From sequence record OK272472.1: 64,000 nucleotides of DNA; one strand, written 5' to 3'. Positions 53,263-53,397 of this stretch are shown one piece after another. This DNA is from Escherichia phage JLBYU28. Under the pieces are notes generated by a model. The model saw only the letters and a list, made by a program, of their open reading frames with translations. It had not been told where the DNA came from and searched no databases. Each line of letters opens with the position of its first letter. Positions within the stretch are counted from its first letter, which is position 1. Both the position numbers and the translations under genes were made by a program.

Positions 53263-53397
53263 CCAGACCGTTGTTTATCATCTTAAGTGCTACCATTACA
53301 CCAACTCGACATCTGTCGAGTGAAGGAATCGAACCTTCTCCTTTTCTTTACCGAGAAATAGATTGTTTAAGTTTTGCTGTAAACGGTCTTCTGTAAA
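53263..53397 (-). repeat. Hairpin repeat unit 1 (CCGT/ACGG type) enclosing the tRNA-like fragment
   Basis: CCAGACCGT (53263-53271) pairs with ACGGTCT inside TTGCTGTAAACGGTCTTCTGTAAA (53374-53397). Confidence 0.5.
53290..53340 (-). pseudogene. tRNA-like fragment: T-arm plus adjacent hairpin, no complete cloverleaf
   Basis: GAAGG-TTCGATT-CCTTC followed by the self-complementary ACTCGACA..TGTCGAGT; no D or anticodon arm found. Confidence 0.4.

Follow-up and report, generated by a model that had tools for sequence, protein, structure and literature searches.

What is a T arm doing in a phage tRNA cluster, at a place where no tRNA gene is called? The place in question is positions 53263 to 53390, minus strand, of the window, the whole 64,000-nucleotide (nt) stretch of Escherichia phage JLBYU28 (OK272472.1) that we analysed; the phage is a Felix O1-type myovirus. 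ARAGORN found 22 tRNA genes in the window, all on the minus strand between 49284 and 54034, and the element lies on the same strand, in the gap between tRNA-Asn (53545-53621) and tRNA-Lys (53040-53113). An initial annotation had described a T arm followed directly by a self-complementary stretch, had found neither a D arm nor an anticodon arm, and had offered two readings, a decayed tRNA gene or a T-arm/acceptor mimic of the Y-RNA-like kind. Our analysis favours the latter. The 128-nt element, hereafter unit 1, contains an entire tRNA body with its halves in reversed order, enclosed by a short closing module that recurs in three neighbouring RNAs (units 2 to 4). We consider it probable that unit 1 is a noncoding RNA with a permuted-tRNA effector domain and that the four units are the Y-RNA equivalents of this phage, with a Ro60-like protein, encoded nearby, as their binding partner.

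The T arm, GAAGG-UUCGAUU-CCUUC, was found as described (53338..53322), and the self-complementary stretch directly after it forms a perfect 7-bp hairpin at 53321..53304, composed of ACUCGAC (53321..53315), an AGAU loop (53314..53311) and GUCGAGU (53310..53304). The two arms reported as missing were also present. A D arm preceded by U8-G9 (UG-GUGU-AAUGGUA-GCAC, 53303..53287), with G18, G19 and A14 in its loop, stands 3' of the hairpin and inside the very interval that had been noted. An anticodon-like hairpin, UUUCU-CGGUAA-AGAAA (53358..53343), occupies the place of the 'V' hairpin of YrlA RNAs, 5' of the T arm, and is followed by a 4-nt variable loop, AGGA (together 53358..53339). These parts are enclosed by a stem in which GACCGU (53383..53388, with AA before it) pairs with ACGGUC (53266..53271, followed by UGG), and the single-stranded motif UUACAGCAA (53374..53382) comes directly after the 5' strand of this stem. 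The minimum free energy (MFE) fold of unit 1 (z = -2.8) recovered the closing stem together with four hairpins, which correspond to the anticodon-like, T and D arms and to the closed acceptor stem.

In tRNA numbering, the order of the element is [27-73]-linker-[1-26], with the 3' half of the tRNA preceding the 5' half. Unit 1 is a complete tRNA body circularly permuted at 26/27, the junction of D arm and anticodon arm, with its acceptor stem closed by a loop. A proper tRNA search yielded nothing at 53263-53390 as it stands, either with ARAGORN or with the Rfam tRNA model at gathering score and at E <= 10; a cloverleaf was obtained only after the element had been un-permuted. When the halves were swapped in silico, ARAGORN drew perfect 71-nt cloverleaves for relatives and called them Thr-GGU (ASO1B, SUSP1), Ile-UAU (Sf14) and His-AUG (L032; L numbers are our handles for phage loci). 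The window copy also gave a cloverleaf, but with an anticodon loop of 6 nt, whereas the loops of relatives have 7 nt (C[C/U]GGUAA, CUUAUAA or CUAUGAA). A canonical 7-nt loop with U33 was present after the swap in SUSP1, Sf14 and L032 and absent from the window copy, and most Felixounavirus copies have C33 rather than U33.

The permutation has also left its mark on public genomes. In some GenBank relatives, such as L003 (MZ726792, 160-288) and L004 (OQ174506, 158-288), tRNAscan-SE calls of 'tRNA-Thr-GGT', 129-131 nt long, overlap unit 2 partially and also cover two thirds of unit 1, counted from its 5' end. These annotations are an artefact of the permutation, the non-pairing 5' strand having been borrowed from far upstream, and the anatomy given here corrects the error.

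An 801-nt query around the element matched 284 phage records, most of them Felixounavirus phages of Escherichia and Salmonella that are 90-99% identical, and the permuted element was kept in about 250 phage genomes. We aligned 16 distinct versions from three genera of Ounavirinae (Felixounavirus, Suspvirus and Mooglevirus). The acceptor helix was paired in 100% of cells, with three of its seven pairs changed on both sides, which gave three compensated versions (GUCGAGU/ACUCGAC, GGCGUGU/ACACGUU and GAAGGGU/ACCCUUC). The stems of the T and D arms were invariant, and the one T-arm change among the 16 was a loop G to A in Sf14; Felix O1 itself carries one change in the T-arm stem (GAGGG), which yields a G:U pair. 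Pairing of the closing stem reached 99%, and a single C-to-U change in it still pairs, as U:G, on the minus strand alone. The motif UUACAGCAA was invariant in Ounavirinae. Less constraint was seen on the anticodon-like arm, which was paired in 87.5% of cells, was degenerate in Moogle-type phages and HP1, and presented 'anticodons' that vary among close relatives (GGU, UAU, AUG). Moogle-type phages have G-CCA in the loop, directly after the 3' strand of the acceptor. Overall, 95.9% of cells were paired, compared with 91.4% in shuffles (none of 500 reached the observed value) and approximately 45% when partners were slid. A covariance model built from the Ounavirinae elements only scored 87 bits in the window versus 19 bits or less for ordinary tRNA-tRNA junctions. 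The element is therefore no product of chance.

Because the acceptor helix stays paired through compensation and the T and D stems are invariant, a decaying pseudogene is ruled out. By the same alignment, the loop of 6 nt or with C33, the varying 'anticodons' and the degenerate hairpin argue against a decoding tRNA, at least here.

The closing module is common to four units, all on the minus strand. Unit 2 (53407..53480) is a 74-nt RNA with a GACCAA/UUGGUC stem, UUACAGCAA and an AU-rich loop; unit 3 (53635..53696, 62 nt) and unit 4 (53794..53862, 69 nt) have the same closing module. The stems of units 2-4 are compensated relative to unit 1 (GACCAA/UUGGUC versus GACCGU/ACGGUC), and their loops, 36-48 nt long, are unrelated. 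The stem is 6-7 bp long, begins with G and is followed by single-stranded UUACAGCAA, and each of the four window units reads AAG-ACC..//..GGU-CUGG. The units sit between tRNA genes of the same strand, in a cluster whose tandem tRNAs are usually 1-7 nt apart. On sequence inspection, we rejected a reading of TTTACA... as a sigma-70 promoter, as well as readings of the repeats as hammerhead, hairpin or twister ribozymes, for which Rfam gave no ribozyme match either.

The tRNA cluster is directly preceded, on its own strand and 0.8 kb upstream of unit 1, by a gene for a protein of 471 amino acids (54200..55615, minus strand). It belongs to DUF2828 and DUF7788 in Pfam and to phrog_850 in PHROGs, and corresponds to Felix O1 ORF42, annotated 'RNA-binding protein'. 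We modelled the protein with AlphaFold (AF2), using an alignment of 80 homologues. The model (pLDDT 89) retrieved Ro60 structures as its top 11 Foldseek matches in the PDB, and full-length matches were to Ro60 only. The predicted structure consists of a HEAT-repeat ring and a C-terminal vWA domain with a MIDAS, and the MIDAS motif D279-x-S281-x-S283 is invariant in the 80 homologues. The 54200-55615 protein is thus predicted to be Ro60-like. More than 3000 homologues of this DUF2828-type Ro60-like protein exist, and such proteins are common in large tRNA-bearing phages. A sigma-70-like promoter (TTGACA-N18-TAAAGT) was seen at ~55650-55680 on the minus strand, ~60 nt before the start codon.

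A protein of this kind has been encountered before. In the PhageMaP preprint, a Ro60-like structure was seen for gp130 of Bas63, a phage treated there as Felixounavirus; gp130 is encoded upstream of tRNAs and counters the Ppl defence, and its Y RNAs were only guessed at, with the remark that they might hide among the tRNA genes (PMC11482910). Judging from its position, gp130 is likely the orthologue of the 54200-55615 open reading frame.

We then looked for the closing module at other loci with this type of protein, using a sample of 80 viral loci (688 kb) that encode Ro60-like homologues of 29-47% identity. A first scan with ACAGCAA alone was noisy (94 versus 23). The strict pattern asked for a 6-bp stem beginning with G, the motif NN[A/U/G]CAGCA[A/G], a complementary 6-mer no more than 230 nt away, and [U/A]G as the tail. 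With it, 93 modules were found on the strand of the gene, compared with 1 on the opposite strand and 1.5 in shuffles, and they were spread over 53 of the 80 loci. Most (74 of 93) lay no more than 500 nt from the gene, 41 upstream and 33 downstream, and none lay inside it. The modules used 48 distinct stems and had a modal length of 53-65 nt, and 84 distinct modules next to DUF2828 genes carry N-U-[A/U]-CAGCAA. Positions that the pattern did not constrain were conserved too, with A at -1 in 79% and U at motif position 2 in 94%. The tail is UGU(U), UGUU being the commonest form in the other phage loci, and G:U (not C:A) pairs were confined to the strand of the gene.

Permuted tRNAs were also present at these loci. 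A strict search for a T arm, a 7-bp hairpin and a D arm returned 20 distinct elements, all on the strand of the gene and none overlapping a tRNA gene, and the Ounavirinae covariance model, searched outward, recovered distant copies at E = 1e-9 to 1e-3. All ten permuted elements outside Ounavirinae were enclosed by the module, as were the Ounavirinae copies, and several permuted elements have N73-CCA (ACCA or GCCA) in the acceptor loop. The element at L116 5682-5812 repeats the whole design of unit 1, combining the module, an anticodon-like arm (CU-GUU-AA), a T arm, a 7-bp acceptor stem with G-CCA and a D arm; un-permuted, it is called as tRNA-Asn(GUU), and the Ro60-like protein of that phage is 39% identical. 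This recurrence of the design in unrelated phages, together with four intact arms and a fully paired acceptor stem with compensatory changes, contradicts the decayed tRNA gene of the initial annotation. Reduced members of the family occur as well, L056 and L109 having no anticodon arm and L059 (at 3879) no acceptor stem. At L059 3848-3945, a variant of the module, UGCAGCAUU, surrounds T and D arms but no intervening acceptor hairpin; therefore, the tRNA-like cargo comes in reduced forms.

The module was also observed with other contents. A non-tRNA cargo, CCUUUCYGGAGGGGAAAGCAAAAACUCGCCAAAA, recurs in conserved form at L044, L050, L051 and L059 (e.g. L059 3736-3832). Minimal modules, in which the stem and ACAGCAA close a loop of 8-14 nt, end at the Shine-Dalgarno sequence of the DUF2828 gene in L059 (3949-3989), L044, L047, L050, L051, L064 and L093. 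Lying where an autoregulatory operator would be, these mini-modules suggest translational autoregulation by the DUF2828 protein.

The closest known counterpart of unit 1 is found among the bacterial Y RNAs. A YrlA RNA consists of a 5' stem strand with the Ro60-binding motif, an optional 'V' hairpin, a T arm, an acceptor-like stem-loop, a D arm and a 3' stem strand; bacterial and phage YrlA RNAs are encoded no more than 4 kb from Ro60 on the same strand, and their YrlB sister RNAs have only the binding module in common with them (Chen et al. 2014, PMC4201824). Unit 1 has the T arm, acceptor-like stem-loop and D arm in the order of YrlA (RF02553), enclosed by end pairing, and it lies within ~4 kb of a Ro60-type gene and on its strand. 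Units 2-4 stand in the role of YrlB, having only the closing module in common with unit 1. Moreover, the acceptor stem has 7 bp in both unit 1 and Mycobacterium smegmatis YrlA, and in vivo the latter is cleaved by RNase P and acquires CCA (PMC4201824). Further marks of the YrlA family are binding by Ro60/Rsr and the modifications psi55 and dihydrouridine. At L056, the element directly upstream of the gene matched the Rfam YrlA model at 39.2 bits (E = 4e-5), which is below the 69-bit gathering score. The suggestion of a Y-RNA-like mimic is thus upheld by the order of the elements and by a gene of predicted Ro60 fold 0.8 kb upstream on the same strand.

The phage RNAs nevertheless depart from YrlA in several respects. 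Their closing module is a 6-bp stem plus UUACAGCAA, compared with GNCGAAN0-1G or CGAA; their partner would be a DUF2828/DUF7788 protein and not a Pfam TROVE protein; and their tRNA body is complete with an anticodon-like arm and broken at 26/27, whereas the break in YrlA runs through the anticodon stem. We class the element as a variant of the Ro60/Y-RNA kind, with YrlA architecture and with a different protein family and closing motif. A similar arrangement exists in the Thermus phage phiLo, which likewise encodes a Ro60-fold protein with small RNAs beside its gene, but the phiLo Ro60 is a canonical TROVE protein, its Yrl RNAs carry CGAA, and no tRNA-like domain or UUACAGCAA was reported; its authors propose that Ro60 and Y RNA hijack the RNA-decay machinery of the host for counter-defence (PMC12135203). 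We found no prior description of the RNAs studied here in the searchable literature.

The Ro60/Y RNA particles of bacteria and animals, and the phenotype seen in Bas63, let us infer how the system might operate. Transcription would start upstream of the Ro60-like gene at the TTGACA-N18-TAAAGT site and run through the gene, the tRNA cluster and the four units, and the units would be excised along with the tRNAs. The module of stem and UUACAGCAA would be the binding site of the Ro60-like ring protein. In unit 1, the YrlA-like member, the ring may grip the stem and motif while the tRNA-shaped domain is offered to tRNA-recognising enzymes; candidates are RNase P, the CCA-adding enzyme, modification enzymes and tRNA-directed nucleases. 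By analogy with M. smegmatis YrlA, the 12-bp acceptor/T minihelix should make unit 1 a substrate of RNase P and of the CCA-adding enzyme. Unit 1 could also decoy or tether nucleases directed at tRNAs. The particle would plausibly act in RNA metabolism or in counter-defence, the latter because the homologous gp130 of Bas63 counters Ppl.

Several results weigh against assigning the units to a Ro60-type particle. The Ro60 character of the protein comes from a predicted structure; Pfam gives DUF2828 and DUF7788 only and no TROVE membership, and phmmer found no Ro60 match among PDB sequences. On the RNA side, the GNCGAAN0-1G Ro60-binding motif was not found on inspection of the 5' region of unit 1 (AAGACCGUUUACAGCAA), and the window copy had no match to Rfam YrlA (RF02553; gathering score 69 bits) at E <= 10. 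An inner helix, CUUAA/UUAAG, which had been drawn by eye and appeared in the MFE fold, was dropped as it had no covariation support. In addition, 27 of the 80 loci had no module within 4 kb under the strict pattern, and modules were also found near tRNA clusters, such that linkage to the protein and linkage to tRNAs are incompletely separated.

One rival view is that the units act only in cis, as processing signals in which a tRNA-shaped RNase P site and hairpins punctuate a polycistronic tRNA transcript, with no role in trans and no partner. The units do sit between tRNA genes on the same strand, and a 7-bp acceptor stem with a T arm is the classical RNase P determinant (PMC4201824). However, RNase P sites are already provided by the neighbouring tRNAs, and a processing signal leaves unexplained the invariant single-stranded UUACAGCAA, the mini-modules abutting the ribosome-binding site of the gene, and the tight clustering of modules at DUF2828 genes in unrelated phages, including modules not between tRNAs. 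We regard this explanation as unlikely. Still less probable, in our judgement, is a purely DNA-level role, in which the inverted repeats would be recombination sites or targets of homing endonucleases. Although HNH endonuclease genes are inserted in the region in some relatives, the pairs on the strand of the gene are G:U and not C:A, modules are biased 93 to 1 towards that strand, and the conserved nucleotides of tRNA tertiary interactions are meaningful only in RNA; we give this idea next to no credence. Decay of one or more tRNA genes, in which deletions within a tandem array would have left the 3' part of one gene beside the 5' part of its neighbour, would suit a cluster in which 1-7-nt spacers are the rule. 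Indeed, tRNA-Tyr and tRNA-Asp, which follow tRNA-Asn in relatives, have both been lost from the window (the permuted element is kept in all), and the permutation itself probably arose from a tandem duplicate. Yet the acceptor strands of the supposed halves remain complementary through three compensated versions, the T and D arms are essentially invariant in three genera, independent copies occur in phages whose partner protein is only ~40% identical, and genuine tRNA-tRNA junctions score 19 bits or less against 87 bits. Decay therefore appears highly improbable.

Another alternative is that unit 1 is a working permuted tRNA gene. Its RNA would be made circular, or ligated, at 26/27, and RNase P together with 3' processing would then open the acceptor loop, the product being a decoding tRNA (Thr-GGU in most relatives). 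Circularly permuted tRNA genes were reportedly described by Soma and colleagues in 2007 in Cyanidioschyzon merolae, and similar ones occur in other algae and in archaea. As in C. merolae, the phage element encodes the 3' half before the 5' half, joins the acceptor ends by a short linker and has flanks that pair. The un-permuted relatives give perfect 71-nt cloverleaves with CU-NNN-AA anticodon loops, N73-CCA is encoded after the acceptor 3' strand in Moogle-type and several distant copies, and Felix O1 encodes a polynucleotide kinase. Genes of the C. merolae type yield decoding tRNAs by way of a splicing endonuclease that depends on a bulge-helix-bulge (BHB) motif and a circular intermediate. 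To our knowledge, no maturation pathway for permuted tRNAs exists in bacteria or phages, and we know of no splicing endonuclease in enterobacteria or in this phage. The phage element further differs in its anticodon loop, which is non-canonical in most Felixounavirus copies (6 nt in the window, and C33 in place of the near-universal U33), and in its flanks, which form a conserved module of protein-binding type that is common to RNAs with no tRNA part and mostly encloses non-tRNA loops. The hairpin is degenerate in Moogle-type phages and HP1, the anticodon changes between close relatives, and the anticodon arm is absent from L056 and L109, as even the acceptor stem is from L059 (at 3879). Taken together, a decoding tRNA seems very unlikely, and we retain the reading of unit 1 as a Y-RNA equivalent that carries a permuted tRNA.

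If the reading is right, these units supply concrete candidate Y RNAs, with coordinates and a common binding-type module, for Ro60-like proteins of the DUF2828 type, one of which, Bas63 gp130, counters an anti-phage system. They also indicate that tRNA mimicry can extend to the entire molecule in circularly permuted form, in some cases with CCA encoded and a well-formed anticodon loop, which raises the possibility of charged or nuclease-baiting "tethered tRNAs".

The closing module resembles one further group of RNAs. The only Rfam family touched by the short units was RF01414, the Class I RNAs of Dictyostelium, with scores of 20.9 bits for unit 3 and 18.8 bits for unit 4, and of 15.7-28.9 bits in nine other hits at module positions; all of these are under the 41.5-bit gathering score, and none is significant alone. 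By their published definition (Kjellin et al. 2021, PMC7919456), Class I RNAs begin with AAG, form a 6-bp stem whose 5' G is invariant, and carry the 11-nt CCUUACAGCAA adjoining the 5' stem strand; their loop varies, they are ~60 nt long and end in CUGU, and their genes occur in clusters. The phage units likewise have an AA-G start and a 6-bp stem in which the 5' G pairs with a 3' C. Both groups end in C-UG(U), the window units in CUGG, and both have a variable loop, a modal length of ~60 nt and clustered multi-copy genes. The phage UUACAGCAA matches 9 of the 11 positions of CCUUACAGCAA, at the same place in all four units, and the matches include the nearly invariant U3, C6, C9, A10 and A11. 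In the 84 distinct phage modules, positions 6 and 9-11 of the 11-nt numbering are invariant by construction of the scan, and U stands at position 4 in 94%.

The two groups also differ. The phage RNAs presumably lack the DUSE (Dictyostelium upstream sequence element) promoter, which lies ~60 nt upstream of Class I RNAs and would not apply to a phage operon (no search aimed at it was made). They would be processed from phage transcripts, and some contain large inserted domains. In Dictyostelium, direct binding is known for the RRM protein CIBP/Rnp1A. A Class I RNA has also pulled down the uncharacterised protein DDB_G0281243, and DUF2828 proteins occur in eukaryotes too, with plant examples in the literature. 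A single family of phage and Dictyostelium Class I RNAs, marked by a G-initiated short stem and (U)UACAGCAA and having the DUF2828 Ro60-like branch as its cognate partner, is a tentative proposal that we hold to be possible though doubtful. The mechanism of Class I RNAs is an open question, and the match of the closing modules suggests a candidate partner for them. If the proposal were true, a second Y-RNA-like ribonucleoprotein system would reach across phages and eukaryotes, and a candidate partner protein and function would be at hand for the Class I RNAs, which have long lacked an explanation. In the phage branch, entire permuted tRNAs with varying anticodons (Thr, Ile, Asn, Arg and others) would be held on a Ro60-like ring, possibly to bait immune nucleases that target tRNAs.

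A few further observations were made in passing. Between unit 1 and tRNA-Lys, positions 53112-53262 (minus strand) hold another structured RNA candidate, with a 24-bp closing stem around a multibranch loop (MFE -51.6 kcal/mol, z = -6.6). One of its hairpins, CAGAC-CUUAAGCAA-GUCUG, recalls the closing module, and Felixounavirus phages keep the candidate, while Suspvirus and Mooglevirus have other sequence in its place. Compared with L001 and L002, the junction left in the window by the loss of tRNA-Tyr and tRNA-Asp (53486-53625) looks as if tRNA-Asn and tRNA-Asp had recombined through their similar 3' ends. At other phage loci, L091 has a phage transfer-messenger RNA (6619-7092, 70.9 bits) ~1.2 kb downstream of the DUF2828 gene, and L116 has an ARAGORN tRNA with a CUA anticodon (7091-7167), of the amber-suppressor type and labelled Pyl. 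Finally, two group I introns scored above the Rfam gathering score elsewhere in the window, at 17991-18274 on the plus strand (64.2 bits) and at 1266-1616 on the minus strand (53.9 bits).

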